DNA of 64,000 bases from Eubacterium sp. (GTDB lineage Bacteria > Bacillota > Clostridia > Lachnospirales > Lachnospiraceae): contig JAZASH010000002.1 in assembly GCA_036343395.1 (NCBI GenBank), positions 12,425 through 76,424 on the forward strand, read 5' to 3'. Below the pieces are notes generated by a model. That model did no database searches. It saw only the letters and a list, made by a program, of their open reading frames with translations, and was not told where the DNA came from. The translations under genes and the position numbers were made by a program. Within the stretch, counting starts at the first letter, position 1, and the number at the start of each line of letters is the position of its first letter. Shown one piece after another: positions 5,340 through 57,434 of the stretch.

Positions 5340-5362
5340 ATAAGGTGTCAAAAACAAAGCAC

Positions 5363-5396
5363 CCTGCAAAAGGATTTGCAGGAAAATACAAGGAGG
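5363..5396 (+). promoter_or_regulatory. Putative CsrA binding sites in the flagellin 1 leader
   Basis: CCTGCAAA-AGGA-TTTGCAGG perfect hairpin with GGA in the loop, plus a second GGA in the SD (AGGAGG), as in the B. subtilis hag leader. Confidence 0.75.
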
Positions 5397-5403
5397 TATT
5401 ATT

Positions 5404-6216: not shown

Positions 6217-6245
6217 TCTTTCCAAGCATAAGATGTTCCGTACGG

Positions 6246-6280
6246 GAGACCACCTCTTCGGAGGTGGTCTTCTTTTTTTT
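6246..6280 (+). terminator. Intrinsic terminator after flagellin 1
   Basis: GAGACCACCTC-TTCG-GAGGTGGTCTTC followed by a T run. Confidence 0.9.
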
Positions 6281-6399
6281 GTTATTATTACTATTATGTA
6301 ATGATAATAGTAATGCGTAGTTTCGTGCCGGCCGGCTGCTGGAAATAAACGATTTTTCGGTGTGCCTCGCCGGGTTTGATTTTTTTTTATTTTAGGGGT

Positions 6400-6425
6400 T
6401 AAGTATTTGAAAAGTGCTCCGATAT
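6400..6425 (+). promoter_or_regulatory. sigma28 promoter of flagellin 2
   Basis: (GGGGT)TAAG-15 nt-CCGATAT. Confidence 0.8.
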
Positions 6426-6541
6426 ATATGGTGTAAGGAGCAAGGGAATGCTTCTAATACCGGTAAGAAAGTTAGATAACAATCAAATAAACCAATTCCA
6501 CTCACAAGGATAGTGAGAGAAAGAAAAGAGAGGTAATCATT

Positions 6542-25011: not shown

Positions 25012-25074
25012 CCGCTAACATACGTAAACATTTATCAATGCCTGCACATATAATATCACTATGAGGTGAGCTGC

Positions 25075-26280: not shown

Positions 26281-26309
26281 TTGACAATCCTAAGGAATTG
26301 TAGTAGAAT
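26281..26309 (+). promoter_or_regulatory. sigmaA promoter upstream of neuC
   Basis: TTGACA-17 nt-TAGAAT. Confidence 0.7.
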
Positions 26310-29658: not shown

Positions 29659-29744
29659 GCATCTAAATGCCAGAGTATAATAAAAATGATTCTAGGTAAT
29701 TTATAAGAAACTAATGATAATAAGTTTCGGAATGGAGGGTGAAA

Positions 29745-29963
29745 ATGTCAACAGAAGAAAAAATCGAATTGTTAGAGGAAATCTTTGAAATGGACGAGGG
29801 GGAGCTTGATTTGGATGCCAATCTCGACGATGTTGAGGAATGGGATTCTCTCAGCAAACTCGCGCTGATGGCGGAGGTACGCACCAGAATGGGTGTTGCA
29901 CTGAGCGTTGAGAATGTGAAAAGTTTCAAGACGGTTCAGGATATTGTTGATTTCTTGAAGTGA
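29745..29963 (+). CDS. Acyl carrier protein 1
   Basis: 72 aa acidic protein; WDSLSKL phosphopantetheine Ser motif. Confidence 0.88.
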   Translation: MSTEEKIELLEEIFEMDEGELDLDANLDDVEEWDSLSKLALMAEVRTRMGVALSVENVKSFKTVQDIVDFLK

Positions 29964-29984
29964 TACGATCTGAGGGAACTCATT

Positions 29985-31016
29985 ATGGAAGCAGTATTTA
30001 AGGATATCAGTATCGAAGGAATTGCAGCTGTAGTGCCGGACAGGGTCGAAGAAAACAGCCGATGGGAAGACCTGATCGGGACCAAAAGACTTAAGCGACA
30101 GATTCGAATCACGGGAGTGGAACGACGCCATCTTCCGAAGGAGGGACAATCGGCAGCAGCTACATGTATGGAAGCGGCGAGATTGCTTTTCTCAGAGCTG
30201 AAGTGGGAGCCGAATTCTTTGGATTACCTGATTTTTGTTACACAGTTTCCCTCTTTTTTGTACCCGTCTACAGCATTCTATATCCACAAAAAATTGGGAT
30301 TGTCTAAGAAATGTGTAGTTTTCGATGTCAATCTGGGATGTTCTGGATTCACTGCCGGCATTCAGATTCTGTCTTCGCTAATGAGAAACATGGGTGACCG
30401 AGGTATGCTCTTGGCCGGGGATGCTGAGTACCGAACGGAGGATCAGAAGAATCGAGAAGACTATATTGAGCATGTCTGTGAGGATATGCTTTTCGGAGTA
30501 GCAGGATCTGCTGTGGCGCTGGAAAGGAAGCCGCATTCCCCGTTGTATGCAACACAGTATGCCGATGGAAACGGATATGATGTTATTCTGAGGACCGGCG
30601 AATATACAAAAATGAACGGCAGCGCAGTCTATGATTTTTCGATGGATGTGGTAGCTCCGAGTATCACGGAGTTTAAGAAAAAGTATTCATTGGCAGATGA
30701 AGATGTAGATTATTATGTATTTCATCAAGCACAAGGGCTGATTGTCAATGGAATCGGAGAAGTGTGTGGGATACCTGTTGAGCGAAATCTGACTTGCTTG
30801 AAAGATTACGGCAATACATCGAGTTCGTCTATTCCGTTGGCACTTTGCGTGAATAGAGATCGTTTGATTGAAAGCAAGACGGTGAGATTGGTTATGTGTG
30901 GATTTGGTATCGGCCTTTCATGGGCGACGCTTTATGCTGAAATGGATCCGAGACGAATCTACCCGGTAAAGATCAGTGAATGGACCCCGGAAGAGGAGGA
31001 CTGGCGTTATGATTGA
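29985..31016 (+). CDS. 3-oxoacyl-ACP synthase III (FabH-like)
   Basis: Intact triad: DVNLGCSG, VFHQAQ, YGNTSS; GFGIGLSW. Confidence 0.9.
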   Translation: MEAVFKDISIEGIAAVVPDRVEENSRWEDLIGTKRLKRQIRITGVERRHLPKEGQSAAATCMEAARLLFSELKWEPNSLDYLIFVTQFPSFLYPSTAFYIHKKLGLSKKCVVFDVNLGCSGFTAGIQILSSLMRNMGDRGMLLAGDAEYRTEDQKNREDYIEHVCEDMLFGVAGSAVALERKPHSPLYATQYADGNGYDVILRTGEYTKMNGSAVYDFSMDVVAPSITEFKKKYSLADEDVDYYVFHQAQGLIVNGIGEVCGIPVERNLTCLKDYGNTSSSSIPLALCVNRDRLIESKTVRLVMCGFGIGLSWATLYAEMDPRRIYPVKISEWTPEEEDWRYD

Positions 31017-31752
31017 TACAGGATTGGATGAAAAACTGATCATAGTGGCCGGTGCAACCGGCGGGATTGGGAGCGGAGTAGCGCGAAGGCTGGATCAAAC
31101 CGGGGCAAGATTGCTACTAGTGGGAAGAAGTGCAGAGAAGTTGGAAGAATTGAATCAGTCTCTCGATCAGGATGCTCTGACATATGTTGTTGATTTTGAG
31201 AAGACTGATGAACTAAAGAATGTATTTGTTTTTTTAAAAGAACACGGACTGAAGGCTGATGGGTTGGTGTTTACCGCTGGTGTGTGCGCGGATATCCCTA
31301 TTAAAGCAGTTTCTCCGGATGAGATGGAGAGAAACATGAGGGTAAACTATTTTGCATTTGTTGAATTGAGTCGACATTTTGCAAGCAAGAGGTACTCGAA
31401 TGATGATGGCAGTATTGTTGTAATGTCATCGATTGCTTCGTTGATGTGTGAAAAATCCATGAGCCAGTACGCAGCATCAAAGGCGGCAGTCAATGCAGTA
31501 ACCAGTACTATGGCGAAAGAGTTTGCAACGCGCCATATTCGTGTTAATGCACTTGCACCGGCTTTTGTTGATACCGAGATGGCATGGGGGACGGCGGAAT
31601 CGATGGATAACTTCGAAGAATACCTCAACAGACGAATGCCGTATGGGGTTATTCCGGTTGAAGAGATTGCTATGTGGACGGAGTTTTTGCTATCGGATGT
31701 TTCCGGGCATATTACCGGAGAAACCATTCGAATATCCGGTGGCATGTACTGA
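31009..31752 (+). CDS. SDR oxidoreductase (FabG-like)
   Basis: GATGGIG; YAASK; VNALAPAFVDT. Confidence 0.9.
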   Translation: MIDTGLDEKLIIVAGATGGIGSGVARRLDQTGARLLLVGRSAEKLEELNQSLDQDALTYVVDFEKTDELKNVFVFLKEHGLKADGLVFTAGVCADIPIKAVSPDEMERNMRVNYFAFVELSRHFASKRYSNDDGSIVVMSSIASLMCEKSMSQYAASKAAVNAVTSTMAKEFATRHIRVNALAPAFVDTEMAWGTAESMDNFEEYLNRRMPYGVIPVEEIAMWTEFLLSDVSGHITGETIRISGGMY

Positions 31753-31772
31753 TCAAAAGAAAGGATAAGACT

Positions 31773-32012
31773 ATGGATATGATTGAAAAATACAGAAATA
31801 CGTTTAAAAAGGCGTTTTCACTTGATGATGATTTTGACGTTGAGTCGTTACAGTTTAATGGCATTCCGGAGTGGGATAGCGTTGGCCATATGGATTTGGT
31901 GGCTGAGATTGAGGATGCCTTTGACATTATGCTTGAGACAGAAGAGATAATTGGGTTGGATTCGTATGCAAAAGGATTAGAAGTGTTGAGGGCTCATGAT
32001 GTATCAATATGA
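31773..32012 (+). CDS. Acyl carrier protein 2
   Basis: WDSVGHMDLV motif; 79 aa acidic protein. Confidence 0.88.
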   Translation: MDMIEKYRNTFKKAFSLDDDFDVESLQFNGIPEWDSVGHMDLVAEIEDAFDIMLETEEIIGLDSYAKGLEVLRAHDVSI

Positions 32013-33672
32013 TGCAATCAGGATTCGGGGGATTGTTTCTGCTATCCCGGATCAAGTACTGAACAATGCGGATTTGGCTAAGGGAGAAGATGAAAAAAGT
32101 GTTCTCCGGCAGATTCGAGTTACGGGTATAAAGAATCGTGTTGTGTGTCGCGATGGACAACGCGCGGCGGACCTGTGCATTCATGCTGCTGAGCGTCTTA
32201 TGGAGCGCTTGGGGTGGTCAGGAGATGATGTTACATGCCTTGTGTTTGTGACATCTTATGCCAGTTATCGGATTCCGTCCACTGCCTTTTTTATGAAAAA
32301 AGAACTAGGGTTGAAGGACGGTTGCCTTGCGTACGATGTTAATCTCGCATGCTCCGGATTTATTGTCGGGTTACAGACAATCGGTGCACTGTTTGAAGGG
32401 CGTGAGGAGGGCAGCAGGGCATTGCTCCTGGTTTCGGATACCACATCCGAGTCTGTAGATGGCAAGGATCCTGCTACGCGGATTCTGTTTGGTGATGCCG
32501 GCGTGGCAATTGCAGTTGAGAAGAATAACGGTTATCCACTCCGGTTTTTACAGATGTCCGATGGAAGAGGATATCGCGATATCATTCGTGAGGATGGAGA
32601 TCATGATTTCATAATGGATGGAATGTCGGTGTTCAATTTTTCTCTCGGGGATGTTGTTGAGACCATTAAGCAGTTTTTGAATGGAATCCGTGAAGAACGG
32701 ATAGAGGTTGATTACTATTATCTGCACCAGGCGCAGAAGTTCATTGTCGATAAGGTTGCAGATTTATCGGGTATTGGAAAAGAAAACGTTTCTGTGACCT
32801 ATGATCGGTATGGTAATACCGGGTGTGCGTCTATACCATTGACAATGTGTGAAACCAGTGGACGGTTTGTTGGCTCTATGAAGACGGTTTTTGCATGCGG
32901 GTTTGGAGCCGGACACTCATGGGGATGTGCATCGATGGTTATTGCCCCGGACACATACTTTGAAGTAATATCCTCCGGAGCAATCTATGATGATGGGATA
33001 CGGGAAGATGTAAGAGCTCTGAACAAGCTGGAATTAAATGGAGTAGAATCAAAGGATCTATGCGAGTCATCAATTTATCAAGGATATATTATCGAGAAGG
33101 CCGGGCTTGATTATAGTGGTGTGGGAGAGTTGACGGAAACCGTTAAGGCTTCTGCATGTGAAGCAATTGAAGGATATGATAAGAAGCGGATCAAGATCCT
33201 GATTTTGGTGACACAGGATGAGGAGTTCCTGTTCCCGTCGACAGCTTTTCGCATTCAGAAGGAGTTGGATATACCAAATGAATGTGTTGTCTATGATATC
33301 AATCTTGGAGCAGATGGCATGTTGACCGGAATTGAGACTGCAATGGGTCTGCTTAAACCGTATTCAGATGAAGATAAGGCACTTGTGATAGCGGCGGACC
33401 GGGAAGAATCTGTGTCGGTGATCGTTGGCAAAGATACTGTCGGACATGCTCGCTTTATGCATCTCAGTCGAGTCGATGACTGGGATATCACACATATAAG
33501 ACGTTTTGCAAAAAGAGTGGATCACCAATCTGAAATCGCCGGATCACCGGTTCCTATTGCGAGGCGATTAGTAGATGCGGTGAATTGCCCGGATGGTATT
33601 CATGCAGAATTGTCTGCGTACGGATCGGGGGGGAGTTTTACCCGTATGGAGTATTTATATGGAACTGAATGA
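31996..33672 (+). CDS. FabH-like synthase fused to a degenerate second KAS III domain
   Basis: Domain 1: DVNLACSG, YLHQAQ, YGNTG. Domain 2: FLFPSTAF...YDINLGADG (catalytic Cys replaced by Ala). Confidence 0.8.
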   Translation: MMYQYDAIRIRGIVSAIPDQVLNNADLAKGEDEKSVLRQIRVTGIKNRVVCRDGQRAADLCIHAAERLMERLGWSGDDVTCLVFVTSYASYRIPSTAFFMKKELGLKDGCLAYDVNLACSGFIVGLQTIGALFEGREEGSRALLLVSDTTSESVDGKDPATRILFGDAGVAIAVEKNNGYPLRFLQMSDGRGYRDIIREDGDHDFIMDGMSVFNFSLGDVVETIKQFLNGIREERIEVDYYYLHQAQKFIVDKVADLSGIGKENVSVTYDRYGNTGCASIPLTMCETSGRFVGSMKTVFACGFGAGHSWGCASMVIAPDTYFEVISSGAIYDDGIREDVRALNKLELNGVESKDLCESSIYQGYIIEKAGLDYSGVGELTETVKASACEAIEGYDKKRIKILILVTQDEEFLFPSTAFRIQKELDIPNECVVYDINLGADGMLTGIETAMGLLKPYSDEDKALVIAADREESVSVIVGKDTVGHARFMHLSRVDDWDITHIRRFAKRVDHQSEIAGSPVPIARRLVDAVNCPDGIHAELSAYGSGGSFTRMEYLYGTE

Positions 33673-34480
33673 GATAACGAAAAACTGCCATAAGATGAGA
33701 CGCCTGATTCTGGATATGGGTTATATTGCCCCACTTGGAGCTCATTTTGGAGCTGCATTGTCAGCTGTTGAGATATTTGCTGTTTTATATGGTGGGGTTA
33801 TGAATTTCTCAACGAAAATGTCGGTTTCCGAAAGGGATATTCTCGTTGTAGGGAAGGGGCATTGTGTACTATCATATTATGCGGCCCTTATGACCTATGG
33901 TTTTATGGATGAAGCTTTAGCTGAGACATTTGATCAGGATGGATCTAATCTTCAAGGACATCCGGCTATGGACGAAGGAGTTGGCATTGAGTTTTCCGCT
34001 GGAAGCCTGGGAATGGCATTGTCGCAGGGGGTCGGGGTGGCGCTCTCAAGGAAGATGAGGAATCACGATTCACGAGTGTATGTTATTCTTGGAGATGGAG
34101 AATGCCAGGAGGGAGCTATATGGGAAGCGGCTATGTCTGCTGCACACTTTAAACTTGATAACCTGGTTGTTGTTGTGGATCGAAATCACCTTCAGTATGA
34201 TGGTAATACTGAGAATGTGATGAGTTTGGGGGTATTTGACGATAAGTGGACGGCATTTGGATTCGAAGTGAGAAGAGTGGATGGTCATGATGTCAATGCG
34301 TTGTGTTCGGCATTGGCGAATAATCTGAAAAATGATAAACCGCTATGTGTGATTGCTGATACGGTCAAGGGGAAAGGTGTATCATTCATGGAGGGGAATC
34401 CAATCTGGCACAATCGTAAACTCCAGCAGAGAGAATACGAGCAAGCACTGGAAGAATGGAGGGAGGAAGATGCAGTTTGA
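33659..34480 (+). CDS. Transketolase N-terminal subunit
   Basis: HFGAALS...RDILVVGKGH...GSLGMALSQGVG...GDGECQEG...WHNR. Confidence 0.9.
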   Translation: MELNEITKNCHKMRRLILDMGYIAPLGAHFGAALSAVEIFAVLYGGVMNFSTKMSVSERDILVVGKGHCVLSYYAALMTYGFMDEALAETFDQDGSNLQGHPAMDEGVGIEFSAGSLGMALSQGVGVALSRKMRNHDSRVYVILGDGECQEGAIWEAAMSAAHFKLDNLVVVVDRNHLQYDGNTENVMSLGVFDDKWTAFGFEVRRVDGHDVNALCSALANNLKNDKPLCVIADTVKGKGVSFMEGNPIWHNRKLQQREYEQALEEWREEDAV

Positions 34481-35444
34481 CAAGAGAACAGCACGCAAAC
34501 TCTCTATGCTTGGATCGCGAGGAGCCTGTGCCAAGGGATTGGAAGAGATCCTGGATGAGGATGATAGAGCAGTCATATTGGCTGCAGATGTGATCCGTTT
34601 TTCCGGGTTGGAGGCAGCACAAGAAACACATCCCGATCGAGTAATCAATGTTGGAATCGCTGAACAAAACATGATTGGAATCGCTGCCGGTCTTGCGAAA
34701 GACGGTTGGCATGTATATGCCACGACTTATGCGAATTTCCTTGTGATGCGCGCGTTCGAGCAGGTGAGGATAAATGTTGGATACATGGGGTTCCCTATTC
34801 GGTTGATTGGCAGCTGCGGCGGAGTTGGGATGGGGAATCTGGGGTATACCCACTTTGCTGTTGAAGATATCGCGTTAATGCGAACGATACCTGGAATGAC
34901 TATTCTATCTCCCGCAGATGGGTGGGAAACATATAAGGCAACAAAAGCACTTAAAGATTACGACAAGCCGACATATTTGAGATTGTCGGGTGAGATGAAT
35001 ATGCCAATTGTATACAGAGAGGATTATGATTATCAAATTGGCAAAAATGTTTGTTTACGAGAGGGAAAAGATGTAGTTATTTTTGCGACAGGATCGATGG
35101 TGGCAACGGCGCTTGAGGTAGCAGAAAGGCTAGAGAAGGATTTGATTCAAACTGCGGTAATGGATATTCATACTATTTCCCCATTGGATGAGGAATTTGT
35201 TAGAAAATCTATTTGTGGCAGAAGCCTTTGTGTAACAATTGAGGAGCATAGTCTGATTAACGGGGTGGGAGACAAACTGTTTGGTGTGCTCGGACATGGA
35301 ACTGAATCAAAATTTATTCAAATTGGGTTTTCGAATGATGTAAAAAAAGCGGATACGCAAAATGCTGTTTTACAAAAATGTGGAATGGGGACAGAGGCTA
35401 TTTGTTCTAGAATTCTTTGTGAGATCAGAGAAGATACTGAATGA
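34470..35444 (+). CDS. Transketolase C-terminal subunit
   Basis: NVGIAEQNMIGIAAGLA...THFAVEDIALMRTIPGM...TIEEHS. Confidence 0.9.
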   Translation: MQFDKRTARKLSMLGSRGACAKGLEEILDEDDRAVILAADVIRFSGLEAAQETHPDRVINVGIAEQNMIGIAAGLAKDGWHVYATTYANFLVMRAFEQVRINVGYMGFPIRLIGSCGGVGMGNLGYTHFAVEDIALMRTIPGMTILSPADGWETYKATKALKDYDKPTYLRLSGEMNMPIVYREDYDYQIGKNVCLREGKDVVIFATGSMVATALEVAERLEKDLIQTAVMDIHTISPLDEEFVRKSICGRSLCVTIEEHSLINGVGDKLFGVLGHGTESKFIQIGFSNDVKKADTQNAVLQKCGMGTEAICSRILCEIREDTE

Positions 35445-35462
35445 ATTGAAGAGGAAAGTGAT

Positions 35463-37418
35463 ATGAAAGAAAAAGTGGTGAAGAATAAAAAAGTTAGAAG
35501 ACCTATGTACTATTTTCCGTACGATGAAATGCCACGCAATTCAAGACTCGTAATTTATGGTGCGAGTGGGTATTCATCTTTTTTAAGAGTGATGAATGAA
35601 GTTGAAAACTACTATAACATTATTTATTATGTAGATATAAAACACGAATTGTATGAGTCGATTAAGGAGATAGACGTTTATTCGCCCGAAACGCTTCTTG
35701 TTATGAATGATTATGATTATGTTGTAATATCTTCAGTGAGTCATGCAGAGGAAATCCAAAGAAAATTGTTTGATTTGTCTGTTCCTAAAGACAAGATTAA
35801 AACAATCTGTGGCGAAGATAGATTAGATGTCAGTAGATACTTAAATGATTTTAGTAATAAGATCTGTGATTATTATAAGAAATGTTTTAGTTATGGGGCG
35901 CGAGAATATGTGCCATATTTGGACGTAAACTCTAAGGAATATATCGATTTGAAACATTTTTTTTTAGAAAACGTCAAAAATGACAAGAACAATGCTGGAC
36001 TAAAAATGCGTGCGATACGATTTTTGGTGATGATGAAGGAGGACTCTGCAGAATTATATGATCAATTCTGCCGCCTGGTATCGAACGAAATACCGGATAA
36101 TGAACTTGATGGATTTTGTTTAGATTTTGCCCTTTGGAATTGGGAACATAGAGAGTGCATAAACCGAGACTATTTCAGGGAATCTCAAAATGCTCATATA
36201 AGGTTTGTTCGTTCTTTGCTAGATTCGCATGGGCATGTTGAGGAAGTCCTTAGTTTAAATCATAAGAATAATTCAAATAATGTTGTTGTAATAGTCTACC
36301 ATTTTTCTATCTATGATGGGATTATGGATGGGCCAACACGTGCTGCTGTTGAAACGTGCCATATGTTGAGTGAGCTGTGTGGCTATGATGTTGATCTGTT
36401 TGTGGAAGATACGCTTTCATTTGAATGGGATGAGGTCTCATATTATAGCTCAGAAAGAAAAGATTATGTATTTCAGTATTACAACCCGTTGTCGATAGAA
36501 CTAGTTAACGATGAGGATGTTGCATCTATTGAAAAATACGGATTTAACGTACATTTTCCAAGGATAAAGAATAGAAGAAAACGCATGATGAATCAGATTG
36601 CTGAGATATTTGCGTTGAATCCTAAAGCGGTTGTAAACCTATGTGGAGAGTATTCAATGGTTTCATTTGCGTTTATAAAAAAGATTCCGTTAATTAATGC
36701 TCCGTTATCTGGATGTCTTGTTTCGCTTCCTGCTGATGTGACAGTTGGTTCATTTGGGGTGGAGGATGTAGAAAAAGAGGTTTCTCAATATAACCTTGAT
36801 ACTTCTGTAAATTATCACAGTATACCGGTTTGGCCGCCGGGGTTTAGGATTCCGAATGGGACATATAAAAAAACAGATTATGGTATTAACGAGAATACAT
36901 TTTTAATGATAACTGTTGGAGTTGATCTTTCCAGATTGATTCCGGATGGTTTTATGGAGATGATGGAGAAGCTACTTGAAAACACTGATGATATTTGTTG
37001 GATGATAGTTGGACCGGATCATTTAAGAATAGACAAACGCTTGGTGGAAAACAAAAAGGTGATTCATATATATAGTGAGCCGAATTTGGGTGAGTTATAT
37101 CAAATGGCAGACATATATTTAAATATTCCCAGAAAAGGAGGCGGGTTGGGAATTGCTGAGGCGATTATCAATGAATTGCCCATACTTATGAATACGTATG
37201 AATCTGATGGGATGATGTGGATGGGAAAAGAAAACACTGTTCCTGGAGATGAATTGGACCTTAGAAACGAAATCATGCTGATACATGATGATAAAAACGT
37301 ATATAACAAATACAAAGAAATGATCAAGAAAAGAAAAGAATATTTGCTAGGCAACAAAAAAAAGGCGGCAGAGATGTGGAAGAGCATTATTGAAGGAATG
37401 GTCGGGGGATTAGGATGA
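35463..37418 (+). CDS. Putative GT-B glycosyltransferase with N-terminal Rossmann-like module
   Basis: YFPYDEMPRNSRLVIYGASG N-terminus; C-terminal WMIVGP...ADIYLNIPRKGGGLGIAEAIINELPIL (GT4-like). Confidence 0.6.
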   Translation: MKEKVVKNKKVRRPMYYFPYDEMPRNSRLVIYGASGYSSFLRVMNEVENYYNIIYYVDIKHELYESIKEIDVYSPETLLVMNDYDYVVISSVSHAEEIQRKLFDLSVPKDKIKTICGEDRLDVSRYLNDFSNKICDYYKKCFSYGAREYVPYLDVNSKEYIDLKHFFLENVKNDKNNAGLKMRAIRFLVMMKEDSAELYDQFCRLVSNEIPDNELDGFCLDFALWNWEHRECINRDYFRESQNAHIRFVRSLLDSHGHVEEVLSLNHKNNSNNVVVIVYHFSIYDGIMDGPTRAAVETCHMLSELCGYDVDLFVEDTLSFEWDEVSYYSSERKDYVFQYYNPLSIELVNDEDVASIEKYGFNVHFPRIKNRRKRMMNQIAEIFALNPKAVVNLCGEYSMVSFAFIKKIPLINAPLSGCLVSLPADVTVGSFGVEDVEKEVSQYNLDTSVNYHSIPVWPPGFRIPNGTYKKTDYGINENTFLMITVGVDLSRLIPDGFMEMMEKLLENTDDICWMIVGPDHLRIDKRLVENKKVIHIYSEPNLGELYQMADIYLNIPRKGGGLGIAEAIINELPILMNTYESDGMMWMGKENTVPGDELDLRNEIMLIHDDKNVYNKYKEMIKKRKEYLLGNKKKAAEMWKSIIEGMVGGLG

Positions 37419-38137
37419 ATATTGTCGATGCAATCTGGGAAAAGAGAAATCTGGGATGCCAATGTAAGGAGATTCTATTTGACAATAAGGATTCTTTAGA
37501 ATCTGTGGAATCTCAGCTAAATGTGATTGATTCTGTCCCTTATTTAGTATTAAGGGTGCCGGTGAATAGACCTGATATCGTTTCTTTTGTTCAGAAGATC
37601 GGGTTTAGGTACATAGAGTGTATTTTTCATTTTTCATACAGGTTGAGCCAGATTGTTCAGGGTGAAAAAAGATTTGATTTTGATTCCTTGTGCGATTGGA
37701 GAGAGATGAATCAAAATGACTTAGAGAGATTACAGAGTGAGATCAGGGCTGGGATGTTTGGTACAGATAGGGTGGCACTGGATCCGGTATTTTCTGCTGA
37801 AATTTCAGCCACAAGGTACATCAATTGGATTAATGATTTGTGTGAAAAGGGGATCATGCCAAACGTTGTGTTGTTTGATAATAAAGAGATTGGGTTTTTC
37901 ATTAACGAGCCCAAAAGCAAAGATGTTATTGATGGAATTCTAATAGGTATATACAACGATTTTAAGGGACTCGGGTATTATTTGCATATTGCATCACTTG
38001 TGGATAGTTACAATAAAGGATATAAGAAGTTGACAGGGAGAGTATCTAGCAATAACCCTGAGCAACTTCGCCTGATGTTTGAGACTGGTCAAAAGATTAG
38101 AAGGATTGATCAGGTGTTCATAAAGCATTGTGTATGA
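37415..38137 (+). CDS. WecD/RffC-like dTDP-fucosamine acetyltransferase (GNAT)
   Basis: FGTDRVALDPVF...RYINW...GRVSSNNP; adjacent to wecE. Confidence 0.65.
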   Translation: MNIVDAIWEKRNLGCQCKEILFDNKDSLESVESQLNVIDSVPYLVLRVPVNRPDIVSFVQKIGFRYIECIFHFSYRLSQIVQGEKRFDFDSLCDWREMNQNDLERLQSEIRAGMFGTDRVALDPVFSAEISATRYINWINDLCEKGIMPNVVLFDNKEIGFFINEPKSKDVIDGILIGIYNDFKGLGYYLHIASLVDSYNKGYKKLTGRVSSNNPEQLRLMFETGQKIRRIDQVFIKHCV

Positions 38138-38266: not shown

Positions 38267-39412
38267 ATGATTAGATCGATTCCGTTTAACACGCCAACAT
38301 TGTCTGAAAAAGGGTTTTCCTATATTGGTGATGCTGTAAAAATCAATAAAAGACTAAATGGGGACGGACCGTTTACGCGGATGTGTACAGAATGGTTTGA
38401 GGAAAGACTCAGTACAAAAGTTCTTCTCACAACATCCTGTACACATGCTCTCGAGATGGCTTCGGTGTTATCTGATATTCAACCTGGTGATGAGGTGATT
38501 ATGCCATCTTTTACATTTGTTTCTACAGCAAATCCGTTTGTTATCAGAGGGGCGAAGGTGGTTTTTGTTGATATTCGTCCAGATACAATGAATATTGATG
38601 AAGATTTCATTGAGTGTGCCATTACAAACAAAACCAAAGCTATCGTCCCCGTTCACTATGCTGGAGTATCTTGTGAGATGGATAAGATTCTTGATATTGC
38701 TCATAGACATAATCTGCTAGTGATAGAGGATGCTGCCCAGGGAATGATGTCAAGATATAAAGATAGAGATTTGGGGACGATGGGAGACTTTGGAGCGTAT
38801 AGTTTTCATGAAACCAAAAACTATACAATGGGTGAAGGTGGTTTGTGTTTAATTAATAATGAAGCATACACGGCTCGGGCTGAGATTATTCGTGAAAAAG
38901 GGACGAATCGATCTCAGTTTTTCAGAGGTGAAGTGGATAAATATAGTTGGGTAGATGTTGGTTCCTCATATCTTCCCAGTGAGATGAATGCTGCGTATCT
39001 TTACGCTCAACTAGAGTTTGCTGAAGAGATTAATAAGAAAAGATTATCTTTATGGGAAAGATACTACAATGGCTTAAGAGCATTGAAAGACGATGGATAT
39101 ATAGAATTACCTCATGTCCCAGAAGGATGTGTGCATAATGCTCATATGTTCTATATCAAGGTGAGGGATTTAGATGAGAGGACCAAACTGATCGCATTTC
39201 TTAAAGACAGGGGGATAGGTGCTGTTTTCCATTATGTTCCATTACATTCATCTATCGCAGGAAGAAAATTTGGCATTTTCTGTGGAGAGGATGTGTACAC
39301 CACTAAGGAGAGCGAGAGATTGTTAAGATTGCCTATGTTCCATGATCTTACTCTGGAAGATGTAGATTATGTGGTTAAAGAAATCGCGTCTTTTTTCGGC
39401 GTTAAGTTTTGA
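38267..39412 (+). CDS. wecE: dTDP-4-amino-4,6-dideoxygalactose transaminase
   Basis: GDGPFT...LLTTSCTHALEM...SFHETKNYTMGEGG...EKGTNRSQFFRGEVDKYSWVDVGSSYLPSE. Confidence 0.93.
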   Translation: MIRSIPFNTPTLSEKGFSYIGDAVKINKRLNGDGPFTRMCTEWFEERLSTKVLLTTSCTHALEMASVLSDIQPGDEVIMPSFTFVSTANPFVIRGAKVVFVDIRPDTMNIDEDFIECAITNKTKAIVPVHYAGVSCEMDKILDIAHRHNLLVIEDAAQGMMSRYKDRDLGTMGDFGAYSFHETKNYTMGEGGLCLINNEAYTARAEIIREKGTNRSQFFRGEVDKYSWVDVGSSYLPSEMNAAYLYAQLEFAEEINKKRLSLWERYYNGLRALKDDGYIELPHVPEGCVHNAHMFYIKVRDLDERTKLIAFLKDRGIGAVFHYVPLHSSIAGRKFGIFCGEDVYTTKESERLLRLPMFHDLTLEDVDYVVKEIASFFGVKF

Positions 39413-49816: not shown

Positions 49817-49839
49817 TGGCCTGATGTGAGGAGCCGGAT

Positions 49840-50544: not shown

Positions 50545-50567
50545 TCTGACAGAGGGAGTTGGACGCG

Positions 50568-51730: not shown

Positions 51731-52474
51731 ATGCCAATGCATGGGAAAACTGTTATCATTACGGGCTGTAACAGGGGGATCGGAAAGGCGATTTTGGAAG
51801 GGATGGCTAGGAGAGGAACGGACATCATCGCGATCATCAGGGATAAAAAGCCGGATTTTGAACAATTTAGTGAAGAAATGGCACGTGAATGCGATGTTAG
51901 TATTCGTATGGTATATGCGGATTTTTCGGATGAAGAGGCTGTCAAGGCGGCTGCAAAGCAGATTATTCAGATGAAATGCCCGATTGACGCGATTGTCCAT
52001 AATACTGCTGTGGCGAATGAGTCGAGATCCTATATGATGACCGGCGTTGATGAGATGAAGCGTGTTTTCCAGATCAATTTTTTCTCACCGATTCTGTTGA
52101 CACAGCTACTGGGGCGCCAGATGATCAGGGCAAAGAAAGGGAGTATCGTTTTTATTGCGTCTGCCGCGATTTATGACGCGTGGGGAAATCTGGAGTATAC
52201 CGCCAGTAAGGCGGCAGTGGCGGGAGCCGTGAAGAGGCTTGCCAGAGAGATGGGGGCTTACGGTGTAAGGGTTAATGCTGTTGCACCCACGCTGACCGAG
52301 ACGGAGATGGCGGAGAAGATGAGCAAGGAGGATCAGGATGTGATCCTTTCGAGAAATATCATGCATCGGATGGGAAAGCCGGAGGAGATAGCAGATGCCG
52401 TTGCCTATCTGACGTCGGATGAGTCTGGGTTTATAACCGGACAGATTCTCCGTGTAGACGGTGGCTTGTTGTAA
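51731..52474 (+). CDS. SDR oxidoreductase
   Basis: TGCNRGIG; YTASK; VNAVAPTLTET; LRVDGG. Confidence 0.9.
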   Translation: MPMHGKTVIITGCNRGIGKAILEGMARRGTDIIAIIRDKKPDFEQFSEEMARECDVSIRMVYADFSDEEAVKAAAKQIIQMKCPIDAIVHNTAVANESRSYMMTGVDEMKRVFQINFFSPILLTQLLGRQMIRAKKGSIVFIASAAIYDAWGNLEYTASKAAVAGAVKRLAREMGAYGVRVNAVAPTLTETEMAEKMSKEDQDVILSRNIMHRMGKPEEIADAVAYLTSDESGFITGQILRVDGGLL

Positions 52475-52487
52475 TCGGAGGGAACAG

Positions 52488-54278
52488 ATGATTCGAGTTG
52501 TTGATTATATCGTGAAGCGCCTGAAAGAGCAGGGAATAGATCATGTTTTTTTTGTTCCCGGCGTGGGATGTATGTATCTGACGGATGCGTTGGCAAAGGA
52601 TAAGGAGATTACGGCCGTGTCGGTGCATCACGAACAGGCGGCTGCAATGGCTGCACTGGCCTATGCACAACAGAAAGAGGGACTGGGTGCGTGTTTTCTG
52701 ACAACGGGGTGTGGCGGGACAAATGCTATTACCGGTGTCCTCCATGCGTGGCAGGATGGAATCCCGTGTATCATCATATCCGGTCAGGTCAAACAGGAAG
52801 ATAGTATCGATGGCTGCGGTGCGGATGTGAGACAGGTGGGAAGACAGGAGGCGGATGTCTACCCCATGATAAAGGGAATTACTAAGTACGCGTCTGTCGT
52901 ACGTAATGCTTCGCAGATTGGTGCGGAGATGGATAAGGCGATTTATCATTCTGTCAACGGGAGACAGGGACCGTCCTGGCTCATTCTGCCGTTGGATGTG
53001 CAGGCGGGGATGGTAGATGAGGATTCACTGGATTCGTGGAGGCCGGAAACGAAACCGGAAGATACGGTAGATAGAGATGCGGAGGAGATCAGTGAATGGA
53101 TCCGGAGCGTCTCGAGACCTCTTCTTCTGGTTGGAAGCGGGATCCGGGCGGCCGGAGCTGTGGGAATACTGCAGTCGTTCCTGGACAAGACAGGAATGCC
53201 GGTCGTGTGTGCGAGAACGGGAGTCGATCTGATCGATGGTGACAGAGCCTATGCGATAGGGGTGACCGGGACATTGGGGGTCAACAGGGCTGCGAACTTT
53301 GCCGTGGCTAACTGTGATCTGCTTTTGGTCGTAGGCCACAGGATGAGCCGTGATACGGTTGGTGATGCAAATAAATATGCAAGAGAAGCCAGAATATGTA
53401 TGATCGATATTGACCCGGAGGAGATGAATAAAAACACCATACGTGTCGATAAAAAGATATGTGCGGATGCCGGTTCATTTTTGCATAAACTGTCGGAAAG
53501 AGTGTCTTCCGATGATATCGACAAAAACTGGAAAGATAAGTGTATGCATTGGAAATGTGTTTTTCCCAAAAAAGATGCTTTGTGTGTATCGGAGGAGAAA
53601 AGTGTACCGGATCTGTATACGTTTTTGGATGCACTATCAAAGGTGATGCCGGAGAAAACGACGTTGCTCAGTGATGCCGGCTCCGTATGGCAACTGGTGC
53701 CATCCGTGGTCGGATATGATGGCATGACACAGCGTAGTATTCATGCTTATGCGCAGGGAGAAATGGGGTTTTCGATACCCGGTGGTATAGGGGCTGCCTA
53801 TGCGAATCCGGATGGAGTCACGGTGGCCATCACCGGTGATGGCTCTGCCATGATGAATATCCAGGAACTGGCTACCATCCATCACAGAAGTATACCGGTC
53901 AAGATCATCGTAATCAATAATAAAGGTTATGCCACGATCAAGACCACACAGAAGGATGCCTTTCGAAGGACCATTGGAACCGGGTTGGAGGATGGACTGG
54001 GGATGCCGGAGTACAGTTGTCTGGCGGAAGCATTCGGAATCTGTTACATGAGTATCGATACTACCGATCATCTGGAAGAGAGTATTCGTGAGGTGTTGGA
54101 TACGGAAGGGCCGGTGTTGTGTGAGGTGTTCTGTGAAGACAGGACGCGGACTCTCATGACTTCCTTTGCCATGACAAAGGAAAGACGGATGGTGATGAGG
54201 CCAATCGAGGATTTGTCACCGTTTCTTGACAGAGAGTTGTTCCTGAGCGAAATGATAATAGACCCAATCGATCAATGA
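52488..54278 (+). CDS. ThDP-dependent acetolactate-synthase-like enzyme
   Basis: HHEQAAAMAA...TTGCGGTNA...GDGSAMMNIQEL...NN ThDP motif; no small subunit nearby. Confidence 0.85.
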   Translation: MIRVVDYIVKRLKEQGIDHVFFVPGVGCMYLTDALAKDKEITAVSVHHEQAAAMAALAYAQQKEGLGACFLTTGCGGTNAITGVLHAWQDGIPCIIISGQVKQEDSIDGCGADVRQVGRQEADVYPMIKGITKYASVVRNASQIGAEMDKAIYHSVNGRQGPSWLILPLDVQAGMVDEDSLDSWRPETKPEDTVDRDAEEISEWIRSVSRPLLLVGSGIRAAGAVGILQSFLDKTGMPVVCARTGVDLIDGDRAYAIGVTGTLGVNRAANFAVANCDLLLVVGHRMSRDTVGDANKYAREARICMIDIDPEEMNKNTIRVDKKICADAGSFLHKLSERVSSDDIDKNWKDKCMHWKCVFPKKDALCVSEEKSVPDLYTFLDALSKVMPEKTTLLSDAGSVWQLVPSVVGYDGMTQRSIHAYAQGEMGFSIPGGIGAAYANPDGVTVAITGDGSAMMNIQELATIHHRSIPVKIIVINNKGYATIKTTQKDAFRRTIGTGLEDGLGMPEYSCLAEAFGICYMSIDTTDHLEESIREVLDTEGPVLCEVFCEDRTRTLMTSFAMTKERRMVMRPIEDLSPFLDRELFLSEMIIDPIDQ

Positions 54279-54291
54279 GGAGGGATTGTTC

Positions 54292-54531
54292 ATGACTAAT
54301 CTTGAGAAATATGATGCGGCGTTCCGGCAGGCGTTGGCACTTGATGATGAATATGATGTCACAGGTCTACGATACCAGGCGATTCCGTCGTGGGATTCCG
54401 TGGGACATATGGGATTGGTTGCCTGCCTGGAGGACAGCTTTGGATTCGTGTTTGATGTCGATGATATGATAGACTTGGACTCTTATGAGAAGGGGATTGA
54501 GCTACTGAAAAAATACGACATTGAGATTTGA
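54292..54531 (+). CDS. Acyl carrier protein 3
   Basis: WDSVGHMGLV motif; similar to ACP 2. Confidence 0.88.
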   Translation: MTNLEKYDAAFRQALALDDEYDVTGLRYQAIPSWDSVGHMGLVACLEDSFGFVFDVDDMIDLDSYEKGIELLKKYDIEI

Positions 54532-54550
54532 TATCGGCAGGGAGGCATAG

Positions 54551-55153
54551 ATGACGGACTATGAATATGTCACGATCTCTCCACCTGACAGAGATCAAGG
54601 AAGAAGACTGAGTTATGACGGTTTTTCTCTCCTGGACCGTGTTGTCGATGTTGAGGTAAAGAGTACCCAGGTTCAGGGATTGAATCGGTATCGGTTTACC
54701 ATTTCAAAGGAGTCGGTGTCAGAAAAAAAGGAAGAGATGCTCGCCATTTGTTCCGAGGCGTATGTCAATGATTACAGGTTCTATGTTTCAGGCGAAAGAT
54801 CGGATCCAGATGCAGTGGCTCGAATGAGGGATTTGATCGGTCAGTTAGAGCATCCGGGAACGATCCTTTTGTGGGTGGAATATCGCGAAAACGGAATAGG
54901 GTTTCTGGCGCTGACATCGGAGGAGGATGCAATGCGAATCACATTGGCAGCAGTCCTTCCGAAATATCAGGGAAGCGGAGTGGCTCTTGAGTTGTATACG
55001 AAAGGGATACTGGTAGCCGCTGAGGCTGGGATGAACCGGGTTATCGGTCGGATATCCACGACAAACACCGCAGTGATGAATCTGTATTCGCATCTGGGGG
55101 CCAAGTTTACTTCTCCGATGGATGTCTACGTCAGGAAACAGGAAGGAAAGTGA
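54551..55153 (+). CDS. GNAT family acyltransferase
   Basis: ITLAAVLPKYQGSGVA...ISTTNTAVMNLYSHLG. Confidence 0.8.
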   Translation: MTDYEYVTISPPDRDQGRRLSYDGFSLLDRVVDVEVKSTQVQGLNRYRFTISKESVSEKKEEMLAICSEAYVNDYRFYVSGERSDPDAVARMRDLIGQLEHPGTILLWVEYRENGIGFLALTSEEDAMRITLAAVLPKYQGSGVALELYTKGILVAAEAGMNRVIGRISTTNTAVMNLYSHLGAKFTSPMDVYVRKQEGK

Positions 55154-55159
55154 AAGAAA

Positions 55160-56236
55160 ATGAAGCTGGATGACTGGTTTGAACTGGATCCGTATGGGCT
55201 GGAACAGGGAGAAAAGGGAGTAAAGACTGCGGATTATATGAGGGAGTTGTGCCGCTATCACTATGAAGCCTGTCCGGAGTATAAAGCAATTCTGGACACA
55301 CTGGGTGTAGATATAGAGGAAATCGATTCACCGGAAATGGTTCCCTATGTACCGGTTCGATTATTTAAAAACCATTATCTGCACAGTGTGCCCGAGGAGG
55401 AGATCACCCGTGTGATGACATCGTCGGGGACGACCGGACAACAGGTTTCACGTATAGCTTTGAGCGCGGACAATGCCAAGGCGCAGCAGAAGGCGCTGTC
55501 CAGGATCGTGGCTTCCTATGTTGGGGAAAACCGGTTGCCACTCATGATTCTTGATTCTAAGAGAGCCATCAAGGATCGCAAGATGTTTTCGGCAAGGGGG
55601 GCGGGAATCCTCGGCTTTTCCATATTTGGTAAGGATACTACATATGCGCTTGATGAGGATATGAAGCCGGATTTGGGAGTAATCGAGGAGTTTCTGAAAA
55701 AGCACGGTGATGAGCCAATCCTTTTATTCGGGTATACCTATATGATCTGGAAGGAGTTTTATCTCAACCTGAAGGAAGCGGGACAAAAAGTCGACTTTGG
55801 GAAAGGATCAAGACTATTTCATGTAGGCGGATGGAAAAAACTACAGGATCTGGCCGTGGATAAGGATGAATATGCAGGCAGTCTCAGGGAACAGTGTGGG
55901 ATTGAGTTTGTTCATAACTATTATGGAATGGCGGAACAGCTGGGGTCTATTTTTGTTGAATGTGAAGAGGGACATCTGCACACCAGTATCTATTCTGATG
56001 TGATCATCCGGGATTCGGAGGATTTTTCTGAGGTATCGGACGGAGAGGCTGGATTGATGGAGGTGATGTCTGTATTGCCGACATCCTATCCGGGGCATGC
56101 TATCCTGACCGAGGATAAGGGAAGAATCCTGGGAGTTGACGACTGTCCCTGTGGAAGGAAAGGGAAATACTTTGAGATATTGGGCAGGATCGCACGAGCA
56201 GAGGTGAGAGGCTGCAGCGATACTTATCAAGGATGA
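55160..56236 (+). CDS. Acyl-protein synthetase (LuxE family)
   Basis: TSSGTTG...HVGGWKK...YYGMAEQ...YPGHAILTEDKG...GRIARAEVRGCS. Confidence 0.88.
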   Translation: MKLDDWFELDPYGLEQGEKGVKTADYMRELCRYHYEACPEYKAILDTLGVDIEEIDSPEMVPYVPVRLFKNHYLHSVPEEEITRVMTSSGTTGQQVSRIALSADNAKAQQKALSRIVASYVGENRLPLMILDSKRAIKDRKMFSARGAGILGFSIFGKDTTYALDEDMKPDLGVIEEFLKKHGDEPILLFGYTYMIWKEFYLNLKEAGQKVDFGKGSRLFHVGGWKKLQDLAVDKDEYAGSLREQCGIEFVHNYYGMAEQLGSIFVECEEGHLHTSIYSDVIIRDSEDFSEVSDGEAGLMEVMSVLPTSYPGHAILTEDKGRILGVDDCPCGRKGKYFEILGRIARAEVRGCSDTYQG

Positions 56237-56255
56237 TTGTCAAGGAGGAGCACGT

Positions 56256-57434
56256 ATGGATATATTGGCCGGTGTTAAGCCGGAGGAGATTGTTGTAAAA
56301 CCGTTAAGACCGTATTGCGATATAGTTTGTGATTTTTTTAATGATTGGAGCCGGTTGATGAGATCTCATCCTGAGGGAAGACGCCTTGGTGATGTGGTTT
56401 CTTTTGCTTTTTTTTGCCGAAAAGGAAATCTAGAGCGTTTGAGGGAAGAGGCGCATATTGAGGACTTGCGGATGGGACGAGGGTTGTGCTTCCATATCGC
56501 ACCGTCCAATATTCCGGTTAATTTTGCGTTTAGTTATGCATTTGGTCTCCTTGCGGGGAATGCCAATATCGTCAGAGTTTCGAGCAAGGCTTTTTCTCAG
56601 GTGGATATCATATGTGATACTTTAAATAAGTTGTTTGAGGATGATAGGTATGAGGCGATTCGCCGTATGACATCCATCGTGAGATATGACCACGATTCGG
56701 AAATTACGGACAGGCTTTCCGGTATGTGTGACATACGATTGATATGGGGAGGTGACGAGACGATAGCTGCTATACGAAGGTCTATTCTCAAACCGGGAAG
56801 CACTGAGATCACCTTTGCGGATAGGTATTCGATTGCGGTTATCGATGGGAAAACGGTTCGTAGTGCATCGGAGGAGGAACTGGAGAAGTTGGCCGGTGAG
56901 TTCTACAACGATACATATATGATGGATCAAAATGCTTGTTCATCACCTCAGATGATATACTGGATCGGAGCGGAGAAGGCGGACAAAGACAGGTTCTGGG
57001 ATGCAGTTAGTCAAACCATAGAGGGGTATGATGTAAGTGAGTTCATTGCCAGTGAGAAATATACTATGCTTTGTGATGATGCGATCGTTCAGCAGGGAGT
57101 GGGAAGACTGAAAAAGTATCAAAACAAACTGTATGTTGTTGATATTCCTGCGAATGCTGACGTGGATATGCTGGATGGTTGTCACGGGAAATACGGCCTT
57201 TTTTGCGAACAGGAGATCGATGGTATTTTGGAAATACTGGATTCAATCGACCGCAAGGTTCAGACCTGCACTTACTATGGAGTGGATGCAAGGGGGCTTG
57301 CCGAGCAGGTTTTGGACCAGGGTGTGACGGGGATCGATCGAATCGTGCCAATAGGGAAAGCGTTGGATATTGGAGTGTACTGGGATGGATATGATCTGGT
57401 CAGACAGATGAGTCGGAGGATAGAGGTAGTATGA
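56256..57434 (+). CDS. Acyl-CoA reductase (LuxC family)
   Basis: HIAPSNIPVNFAFS...GLLAGNANIVRVSS...DQNACSSP...GIDRIVPIG. Confidence 0.88.
   Translation: MDILAGVKPEEIVVKPLRPYCDIVCDFFNDWSRLMRSHPEGRRLGDVVSFAFFCRKGNLERLREEAHIEDLRMGRGLCFHIAPSNIPVNFAFSYAFGLLAGNANIVRVSSKAFSQVDIICDTLNKLFEDDRYEAIRRMTSIVRYDHDSEITDRLSGMCDIRLIWGGDETIAAIRRSILKPGSTEITFADRYSIAVIDGKTVRSASEEELEKLAGEFYNDTYMMDQNACSSPQMIYWIGAEKADKDRFWDAVSQTIEGYDVSEFIASEKYTMLCDDAIVQQGVGRLKKYQNKLYVVDIPANADVDMLDGCHGKYGLFCEQEIDGILEILDSIDRKVQTCTYYGVDARGLAEQVLDQGVTGIDRIVPIGKALDIGVYWDGYDLVRQMSRRIEVV

Follow-up and report, generated by a model that had tools for sequence, protein, structure and literature searches.

A possible junction of two carrier-protein modules in a flagellin glycosylation island of a Eubacterium species

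Gene content of the cassette

The stretch of DNA analysed here (the window) covers 64,000 nucleotides of contig JAZASH010000002.1 of Eubacterium sp. (Lachnospiraceae) and forms a single long co-directional flagellin glycosylation island. Positions 29745-35444 hold a cassette of two acyl carrier proteins (ACP1 and ACP2), two β-ketoacyl-ACP synthases III (KAS III; FabH1 and FabH2), one ketoreductase (KR) of the short-chain dehydrogenase/reductase (SDR) type and a transketolase divided into an N and a C subunit (Table 1). All of these genes, listed in an initial annotation of the locus, are present on the plus strand with intact frames. The tight packing described there is also observed, with gaps of 21-22 nt or overlaps of 8, 17, 14 and 11 nt between genes. 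A Shine-Dalgarno sequence lies at every gene start and no intergenic terminator was found in the cassette, which reads as a translationally coupled run inside the flagellin glycosylation operon. As the initial annotation had also observed, a lipoyl domain is absent: no lipoyl or 2-oxoacid-dehydrogenase acyltransferase (E2) match occurs in any open reading frame (ORF) from 28669 to 38137.

Table 1 Features of the cassette and of the surrounding island, in window coordinates
Feature	Coordinates	Strand	Evidence or remark
Flagellar genes and two flagellins	2-7357		opens the window
LicD, glycosyltransferase and TagD/TagF-like genes	after the flagellins		
Tandem-GNAT acyltransferase, 329 aa	28669..29658	+	AlphaFold2 and Foldseek; no Pfam match
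ACP1	29745..29963	+	PF00550 (PP-binding), E 2.4e-8; DSL serine read in sequence
FabH1, KAS III with Cys/His/Asn triad	29985..31016	+	PF08541, PF08545
SDR ketoreductase (KR), FabG-like	31009..31752	+	adh_short_C2, E 2.5e-45, and KR domain; TGxxxGIG and YxxxK motifs
ACP2, WDS-type carrier family	31773..32012	+	family profile
FabH2, catalytic KAS III domain of the 558-aa fusion	31996..32985	+	PF08541, PF08545
Degenerate half-KAS III remnant, in-frame C-terminal part of FabH2	32986..33672	+	
Transketolase N subunit (binds thiamine diphosphate), island-type clade	33659..34480	+	PF00456, E 1e-34
Transketolase C subunit (Pyr and C domains), 324 aa, island-type clade	34470..35444	+	PF02779, PF02780
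GT-B glycosyltransferase candidate, 651 aa	35463..37418	+	no Pfam match
Possible WecD-like N-acyltransferase	37415..38137	+	weak NCBIfam match
DegT/DnrJ-type sugar aminotransferase	38267..39412	+	PF01041, E 5.5e-87
Distal set: SDR2, ALS/YerE-type enzyme, ACP3, GNAT, LuxE, LuxC	51731..57434	+	Pfam
ALS/YerE-type enzyme dependent on thiamine diphosphate	52461-54278		between SDR2 and ACP3
ACP3	54292-54528		

ACP2 on its own has no Pfam match. In its family the serine of the WDS motif is invariant, and a profile of the family run against the PDB matches ACPs only (41 hits). ACP2 is 48% identical to ACP3 of the distal set, and the WDS-type family accompanies the transketolase/LuxC-LuxE module described below.

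The Cys/His/Asn triads of the KAS III enzymes, taken as intact in the initial annotation, are invariant across FabH1, FabH2 and 23 relatives (C119, H244 and N274 in FabH2), and the three residues are aligned in the closest PDB entry to FabH2 (4efi, E 3.6e-53). In KAS III-like acyltransferases of the CerJ, ChlB3/ChlB6 and DpsC type, the His and Asn of decarboxylation are replaced, leading to transfer and not condensation. Because both residues are invariant here, an acyltransferase identity is rejected and condensing activity would be expected of FabH1 and FabH2.

FabH1 scores under the NCBIfam cut-offs for housekeeping FabH. With PF08541, the island KAS IIIs reach ~70 bits and housekeeping FabH proteins from relatives, the same genus included, 108-124 bits; a housekeeping identity of the island copies is rejected on these scores. 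No housekeeping-type FabH was found in this 95%-complete assembly, where the two island copies are the only PF08541 matches. The FabD, FabG and FabF genes of the same genome (contig C24, 23545-26512) lie at a contig end located just past fabF, and the same-genus genome G080 has a housekeeping FabH scoring 124 bits; the housekeeping fabH is therefore probably missing from the assembly rather than from the genome.

FabH2 consists of a normal KAS III (~330 aa) fused to a half-KAS III remnant, 558 aa in total. In the AlphaFold model, the KAS III domain (1-330) has a predicted local distance difference test score (pLDDT) above 90, residues 380-480 are moderate (66-90), and residues 336-378 and 482-558 are unstructured (below 50). 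The remnant aligns with residues 43-143 of FabH structures (E 3.5e-8) and is 39% identical to FabH1 residues 74-148; its active-site Cys is changed to Ala and the His/Asn half is missing. Proteins closely related to FabH2 (54-61% identity) are unfused, at 338-341 aa. The fused form was seen in this genome's own cluster only, not in other genomes, and a contig scan with the 558-aa protein as the query returned one distant locus. The FabH1 orthologues of G030 (L018 14926-16548) and G080 (L016 15173-16789) are 538-540 aa long, with a ~200-aa C-terminal extension resembling a degenerate Rossmann/SDR domain. Homology of this extension with the FabH2 remnant was considered and rejected, as the two are unrelated by sequence.

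The KAS III, KR and ACP genes are grouped with the gene upstream of them into module A, which comprises the tandem-GNAT gene, ACP1, FabH1, KR, ACP2 and FabH2. The tandem-GNAT protein was modelled by AlphaFold2 with a mean pLDDT of 94, and its top Foldseek matches, all with probability 1.0, are Eis, MAB_4324, N-myristoyltransferase and the glucosamine N-acetyltransferase 5kf1. It has at least 597 homologues, the nearest of which are fused to a Pfam GNAT domain, and its gene, the conserved first one of module A, stands beside ACP-FabH-SDR in four other genomes (G030, G080, G225 and G316). From its modelled fold, the protein is a likely candidate for an acyl-ACP-dependent N-acyltransferase that empties the carrier protein. 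A 353-aa ORF at 25066-26127, without a Pfam match, is a paralogue (27% identical), so the island encodes two such transferases.

In the same-family genomes G030 and G080, the 329-aa protein is followed by ACP, KAS III and SDR, and then by KAS III and ACP, with no transketolase. Module A, or its deacetylase-NeuB-NeuA-NeuC neighbours, is also grouped in G225, G316 and L099. Among the window ORFs scanned, no dehydratase or enoyl reductase of the FabA/FabZ/FabI/FabK type was matched; the window holds no hexapeptide/PglD protein, and module A holds no acyltransferase for malonyl loading, with FabD encoded elsewhere in the genome (contig C24). Module A thus has the make-up of a cut-down type II fatty-acid line without dehydratase and enoyl reductase, the absence of which implies that hydroxyls would be retained.

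The G030 block (L018 = G030:C6, 6917-19127) also includes an AMP-ligase and an NMT1-type ABC importer, is located between two YhgA-like transposase genes and has no evident glycan context, which points to a mobile tandem-GNAT/ACP/KAS III cassette, possibly with a non-sugar acceptor.

The split transketolase and its clade

The genome encodes a second split transketolase, on contig C32, which adjoins a putative transaldolase-family gene (read from sequence) and is 43% and 37% identical to the island copy. A quick maximum-likelihood tree (IQ-TREE) with DXS as the outgroup sets the island clade (SH-aLRT 98) apart from the split transketolases of the housekeeping type (SH-aLRT 95). The window C subunit lies inside the island clade on its longest branch (1.45, median 0.23). 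The split transketolase is assigned to a widespread neofunctionalised clade, distinct from the housekeeping copy. In G225 and G316, a housekeeping C subunit query matched nothing beyond DXS-like proteins and the island-type copy; both genomes may lack a split housekeeping enzyme, or may encode one that is full-length and divergent.

The active site was compared through an alignment with human transketolase and the split Carboxydothermus enzyme, to which 60 N and 74 C subunits from the clade were added. In the window N subunit, the equivalents of human His37, His77, His110 and His258 are kept, together with the GDG...N metal motif. In the window C subunit (E. coli numbering), R358, the activating Glu and H473 are kept, while H461 is changed to Cys, D469 to Leu, R520 to Gly/Glu and S385 to Phe. 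Across the clade, the catalytic residues and those for thiamine diphosphate (ThDP) are retained in 58-60 of the 60 N subunits and in 73-74 of the 74 C subunits. None of the 74 C subunits retains the equivalent of H461, D469 or R520, these sugar-phosphate and sugar-hydroxyl ligands having given way to small or hydrophobic side chains (Leu at the D469 position in 57); an equivalent of R358 is present in 61. In the genome's housekeeping copy, H461, D469, R520 and R358 are all retained; its S385 column holds Ala, with Thr one column on.

In canonical transketolases, histidines contact the dihydroxyethyl intermediate, and D469 reads the 2-hydroxyl of the acceptor. The roles of R358, S385, H461 and R520 in the E. 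coli enzyme are those of sugar-phosphate ligands (PMC11387542). AniP of anisomycin biosynthesis, a natural transketolase homologue without these ligands, prefers non-phosphorylated glyceraldehyde (PMC11387542), and substitutions at S385, D469 and R520 moved the E. coli enzyme towards non-phosphorylated aliphatic and aromatic aldehydes (PMC5073344). From its residues, the clade looks like one of ThDP-dependent ketol-transfer enzymes that take something other than a sugar phosphate as their second substrate. The ketose-phosphate donor assumed in the initial annotation is also doubtful, with 74 of 74 members lacking two of the four phosphate ligands as well as the hydroxyl-reading Asp.

The four closest genome copies (G225, G316, G631 and G606) lie beside LuxE, LuxC, an SDR2-type SDR and a WDS-type ACP, and one of these loci has no KAS III. 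A metagenome scan with an alignment of island transketolases yielded 80 loci of soil, freshwater, seawater and gut origin. An SDR2-type gene sits immediately upstream of the transketolase in 53 of 58 loci, and a WDS-type ACP directly downstream in 34 of 64, which bears out the proposed tie of the transketolase to a carrier protein. In the long loci (at least 6 kb of flank, n=40), SDR is found in 38, ACP in 30, AMP-ligase in 27, LuxE in 26 and LuxC in at least 26, some as LuxE-LuxC fusions. These are accompanied by a FabA-like dehydratase in 17, DegT in 16, and PglD-like and 4,6-dehydratase genes in 12 each; transaldolase is found in none. KAS III (FabH) occurs in only six, so that the functional tie between transketolase and KAS III drawn in the initial annotation is not supported; the constant partners are SDR, ACP, AMP-ligase and LuxE-LuxC. 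No lipoyl or E2 domain is present among the frequent partner families of the clade.

In G225, G316, G631, G606 and the majority of the 80 loci, the island-type transketolase has orthologues of the window's distal set on its flanks. The slot between SDR2 and ACP3 is filled by the acetolactate synthase (ALS)/YerE-type enzyme in the window and by the transketolase in most other loci; G606 carries both enzymes, each with its own SDR. In the window, SDR2, ACP3, LuxE and LuxC are not contiguous with the cassette, a decayed KAS III fragment is found where the SDR of the transketolase usually sits, and no AMP-binding protein occurs among the ORFs scanned. The ACP/AMP-ligase/LuxE/LuxC/reductase block is complete beside the transketolase in most other loci. 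The order FabH-SDR-FabH-SDR-transketolase-ACP recurs, followed by AMP-ligase and LuxE/LuxC, in the metagenome loci L085, L088, L110, L101, L044 and L050, and the arrangement of the cassette is not due to chance. Such orders appear to reflect an ancestral composite, of which the window version would be a rearranged form.

Several further features of these loci were observed. LuxE and LuxC form single fusions of 755-824 aa in L085 (12644-15112), L110 (12621-15095) and L109 (13094-15361), both Pfam domains being confirmed for that of L085; Vibrio cholerae RfbN is similar. Between the FabA-like gene and SDR-transketolase there is either a radical SAM/SPASM enzyme or a GMC oxidoreductase with a 142-aa protein (L045, L049, L060, L062, L078, L098 and L099, versus L052, L071, L076, L081, L090, L092 and L094), which may be alternative alcohol-to-carbonyl oxidations. 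A small metallo-beta-lactamase-fold protein stands beside the cassette ACPs in L028 (7803-8459), L100 (3296-4021) and L110 (15065-15727), with no copy in the window, and may be an acyl-ACP thioesterase or editing enzyme. A link between the transketolase and the phosphonate genes of the window, in the manner of the phosphonothrixin split transketolase, was rejected, as the clade loci are without phosphoenolpyruvate mutase.

The surrounding island and the proposed roles of the two modules

The operon starts at a strong promoter-like site (26281-26309, 11/12 matches) and proceeds through NeuC, Maf, the cassette, the glycosyltransferase candidate, the acyltransferase candidate, DegT and a radical SAM enzyme. 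Farther downstream lie genes for 3′-phosphoadenosine 5′-phosphosulfate (PAPS), a deacetylase, NeuA, NeuB, the SDR/ThDP/ACP/GNAT/LuxE/LuxC set and phosphonate genes. The ORF directly following the cassette has a protein atlas feature score of 0.99 and a template modelling (TM) score of 0.72 to clusters with Glyco_trans_1_4; by features and modelled structure it resembles GT-B glycosyltransferases (Glyco_trans_1_4, O-GlcNAc-transferase-like), which is offered as a lead only. The next ORF matches the NCBIfam dTDP-4-amino-4,6-dideoxygalactose acyltransferase weakly (E 0.0013) and has no Pfam match even at E 0.1; its homologues adjoin SDR-transketolase in G631, G606, L037, L042, L083 and L086. The DegT/DnrJ-type aminotransferase is the predicted source of the amino sugar acceptor. 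A polysaccharide deacetylase is found repeatedly beside NeuB/NeuA/NeuC and near the KAS III/tandem-GNAT module (window 48815-51602, L026, L028 and L099), a neighbourhood that would fit removal of the N-acetyl group from a sialic-acid precursor ahead of re-acylation.

The run from 29745 to 35444 may be the junction of two carrier-protein modules tailoring acyl substituents for flagellin glycan sugars, with the transketolase outside the module A line; we give this reading a probability of about one half. Two modules are proposed, and not one line, because module A recurs without the transketolase in G030 and G080. The chemistry is what we infer from domain identities, catalytic residues, the separation of the clades and synteny. 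In module A, a short acyl primer would be condensed with malonyl-ACP, loaded by the housekeeping FabD, and the product reduced by the KR to 3-hydroxybutyryl-ACP. The second KAS III would permit a second round leading to a 3,5-dihydroxyhexanoyl-type chain, after which the GNAT-fold enzyme would pass the acyl chain to an amino sugar. Candidate acceptors are neuraminic acid, once de-N-acetylated, and the DegT aminotransferase product; the gene neighbours of the module suggest that the acceptor may be a sialic-acid-type sugar that is first de-N-acetylated. The KAS III/KR/ACP genes add a new example to a predicted kind of hydroxyacyl line. The initial annotation had likewise proposed a hydroxylated acyl group built on carriers for sugar N-acylation, and the tandem-GNAT, WecD-like, DegT, NeuB/NeuA/NeuC and deacetylase context is in favour of that part; N-glycolyl sialic acid and 3,4-dihydroxybutyryl, the products it named, could still be formed, with no specific support for either.

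In the second module, the adenylating LuxE, an ACP and the acyl-thioester reductase LuxC would act as a stand-alone carboxylate-to-aldehyde reductase and supply an aldehyde. Transketolases require an aldehyde acceptor and yield an alpha,beta-dihydroxy ketone. The transketolase would add a two-carbon ketol to the non-phosphorylated aldehyde released or exposed by LuxC, and the SDR would reduce the new ketone, resulting in an acyl or side chain longer by a dihydroxyethyl unit. Where an AMP-ligase is paired with LuxE, a dicarboxylic acid could be tethered by one end while its other end is reduced, a scheme reportedly proposed for the tetronate genes of V. cholerae O1. The presence of two ThDP carboligases in one slot, followed by the same type of reductase, fits best with formation of a carbon-carbon bond on a carbonyl and then reduction, the manner in which YerE/YerF and ErwE/ErwF operate (PMC9306805). 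More tentatively, and at clearly less than even odds, the split transketolases may extend the chains of ACP pathways by this C2 ketol transfer onto a LuxE/LuxC aldehyde, a non-Claisen extension, and here, together with the two-KAS III line, could give flagellin sialic-type sugars carrying N-hydroxyacyl instead of N-acetyl groups. Literature searches returned no paper describing the transketolase clade and its cassette.

Several points weigh against this interpretation. KAS III normally uses acyl-CoA, and not acyl-ACP, primers. The two-round scheme of module A is drawn by analogy with one published gene assignment, which is itself a prediction. The transketolase of the window is without an adjacent SDR and is located 16 kb from LuxE-LuxC, and the very long branch and lost S385 equivalent of its C subunit may indicate that this subunit is diverging or decaying. 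LuxC is not seen in about one third of the long loci, truncated ones among them, and the 80 loci were picked by similarity to the clade and hence describe the clade, not transketolases generally.

In the scheme of the initial annotation, the transketolase pair would move a C2 unit from a ketose phosphate to an ACP, as QncN/L/M and NapB/C/D do in the quinocarcin and naphthyridinomycin pathways. The glycolyl-ACP would then serve as the FabH2 starter and be converted by ketoreduction to 3,4-dihydroxybutyryl-ACP, or provide glycolyl for an N-glycolyl sugar. The contiguity and translational coupling of ACP2, FabH2 and the two transketolase genes would be accounted for, as would the ACP that often adjoins the clade, and the naphthyridinomycin and dnacin clusters likewise pair a split transketolase, an ACP and a KAS III (NapB/C/D/E and DinS/T/U/Q; PMC7570522). 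However, the quinocarcin-type system is defined by lipoyl-attachment and E2 acyltransferase domains (QncL/SclQ4, PMC6335953), neither of which occurs in any ORF at 28.6-38.1 kb, and without an oxidant dihydroxyethyl-ThDP cannot become a thioester, which counts against glycolyl-ACP. The rarity of FabH beside the clade and the partial loss of the phosphate ligands for a ketose-phosphate donor add to this, and the constant SDR, AMP-ligase and LuxE partners would be left without a role, making the scheme quite improbable. Phosphoketolase-like formation of acetyl-ACP was also considered and was set aside, as it found no support. The tight pairing with the SDR (53 of 58 loci) could instead point to a branched sugar, in which the C2 unit is added to a nucleotide-linked keto sugar and reduced to a dihydroxyethyl branch, with the ACP genes serving other steps. 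The YerE/YerF logic is established (PMC9306805; compare ErwE/ErwF), an SDR of the same type stands beside a YerE-like ThDP enzyme in the window and in G606, and DegT and 4,6-dehydratase genes occur in 16 and 12 of the 40 long loci. This reading is unlikely: ketone acceptors are not known for transketolases, no 4,6-dehydratase was found in the window, and the adjacent ACP and the LuxE/LuxC/AMP-ligase association would be unexplained.

The pair could also be a relic of cassette shuffling, like the dead half-KAS III, the ALS-type enzyme having taken over its slot. The position of the C subunit on the longest branch of the clade, the lost S385 equivalent and the decayed KAS III fragment in place of the usual SDR neighbour are in keeping with this, whereas both frames are unbroken, their starts are coupled and have strong Shine-Dalgarno sequences, and the ThDP-binding, metal-binding and catalytic residues are all kept; we regard a relic as very unlikely. 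Placement in the island by chance, with the transketolase as a second pentose-phosphate enzyme and the KAS IIIs as initiators of fatty-acid synthesis, is barely credible. The lack of any other KAS III in the assembly would favour it, but that gap is probably one of assembly, at the contig end after fabF, and the island KAS IIIs score well below the housekeeping FabH of relatives with PF08541. Moreover, the genome has a housekeeping transketolase next to a putative gene of the transaldolase family, the clade as a whole has lost the substrate ligands, and transaldolase is found in 0 of 40 long loci.

In the reading as a junction of two modules, two building blocks that recur across phyla are separated: a KAS III/KR/ACP line with a tandem-GNAT, and the transketolase clade. 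How antigenic flagella, capsules and O-antigens are, and how the immune system recognises them, is shaped by unusual N-acyl groups on surface sugars. The active site of the clade naturally bears the kind of changes that engineers made for the acceptance of non-phosphorylated aldehydes, and its characterisation could provide a new glycan-tailoring reaction and a ready biocatalyst scaffold, as well as better sequence-based prediction of flagellin glycan structures in gut Clostridia.

Comparison with known systems

In Flavobacterium psychrophilum, wfpC-wfpG encode two ketoacyl-ACP synthases, an ACP, a ketoacyl-ACP reductase and a PglD-like acyltransferase, and are predicted to make the chemically established 3,5-dihydroxyhexanoyl amide on the Qui2NAc4N of the O-antigen (PMC6519341). 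Module A resembles this set in its two condensing enzymes, one reductase and dedicated ACP, in the lack of dehydratase and enoyl reductase, and in its glycan locus with an aminotransferase. The elements of such a miniature type II fatty-acid synthase, namely Cys/His/Asn KAS IIIs, an ACP with a phosphopantetheine serine and a YxxxK ketoreductase, are all found in the window. The two systems differ in that the window has two ACPs and a FabH2 with a dead half-domain, and in the acyltransferase: a PglD left-handed helix there, and a tandem-GNAT, possibly WecD-like, fold here. No PglD-type acyltransferase is present in the window, which leaves the tandem-GNAT and possible WecD-like proteins as candidates; of the 40 related loci, 12 do carry a PglD-like gene. 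The likeness is drawn from gene content and descriptions, and the Wfp assignment is itself a prediction.

The second module recalls the tetronate genes of V. cholerae O1, rfbK-O (wbeK-O), to which roles in making that acyl group are ascribed. The flagellin islands of Aeromonas group II and Enterobacteriaceae contain an ACP/FabG/AMP-ligase/LuxE/LuxC set (PMC7874193, PMC4875605). All of these combine, within a glycan locus, a carrier, an adenylating enzyme, a reductase and LuxE-LuxC, and their presumed product is a short hydroxylated N-acyl group. In contrast to the clade loci, the tetronate and flagellin-island sets are without a transketolase, and the roles of their genes are predicted; in the window, LuxE-LuxC is distant from the transketolase (16 kb) and the ORFs scanned include no AMP-ligase.

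The glycolyl-ACP systems of the tetrahydroisoquinoline antibiotics and scleric acid (QncN/QncL/QncM, NapB/C/D(/E) and SclQ1-4; PMC6335953, PMC7570522) share with the cassette a split transketolase-like E1 and a small dedicated ACP, and Nap and Din share the KAS III. The cassette differs in having no lipoyl-attachment/E2 domain and no nonribosomal peptide synthetase, in the SDR and LuxE-LuxC that are constant partners of its clade, and in its glycan, not natural-product, context.

With canonical transketolase (EC 2.2.1.1), the clade shares the ThDP and catalytic residues; the sugar-phosphate ligands are mostly lost and the pentose-phosphate gene context is absent. The engineered E. coli variants, S385Y/D469T/R520Q and its relatives (PMC5073344), and AniP (PMC11387542) are closer in this respect, as phosphate-binding and Asp469 positions are lost and the ThDP machinery is kept, a loss that goes with non-phosphorylated aldehyde acceptors in both cases (PMC5073344, PMC11387542). 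Those enzymes are single-chain, unlike the split island clade, and the donors of AniP are aromatic 2-oxo acids (PMC11387542).

The ThDP enzymes of YerE/YerF, ErwE/ErwF (PMC9306805) and SfmB/SfmC are of the ALS/IlvB type and not transketolases, and the window has a separate ALS-type copy in its distal set. What these systems have in common with the clade is the pairing of a ThDP carboligase with a ketone-reducing SDR, and SfmB/SfmC are genetically required for flagellin modification in Shewanella oneidensis (PMC3765264).

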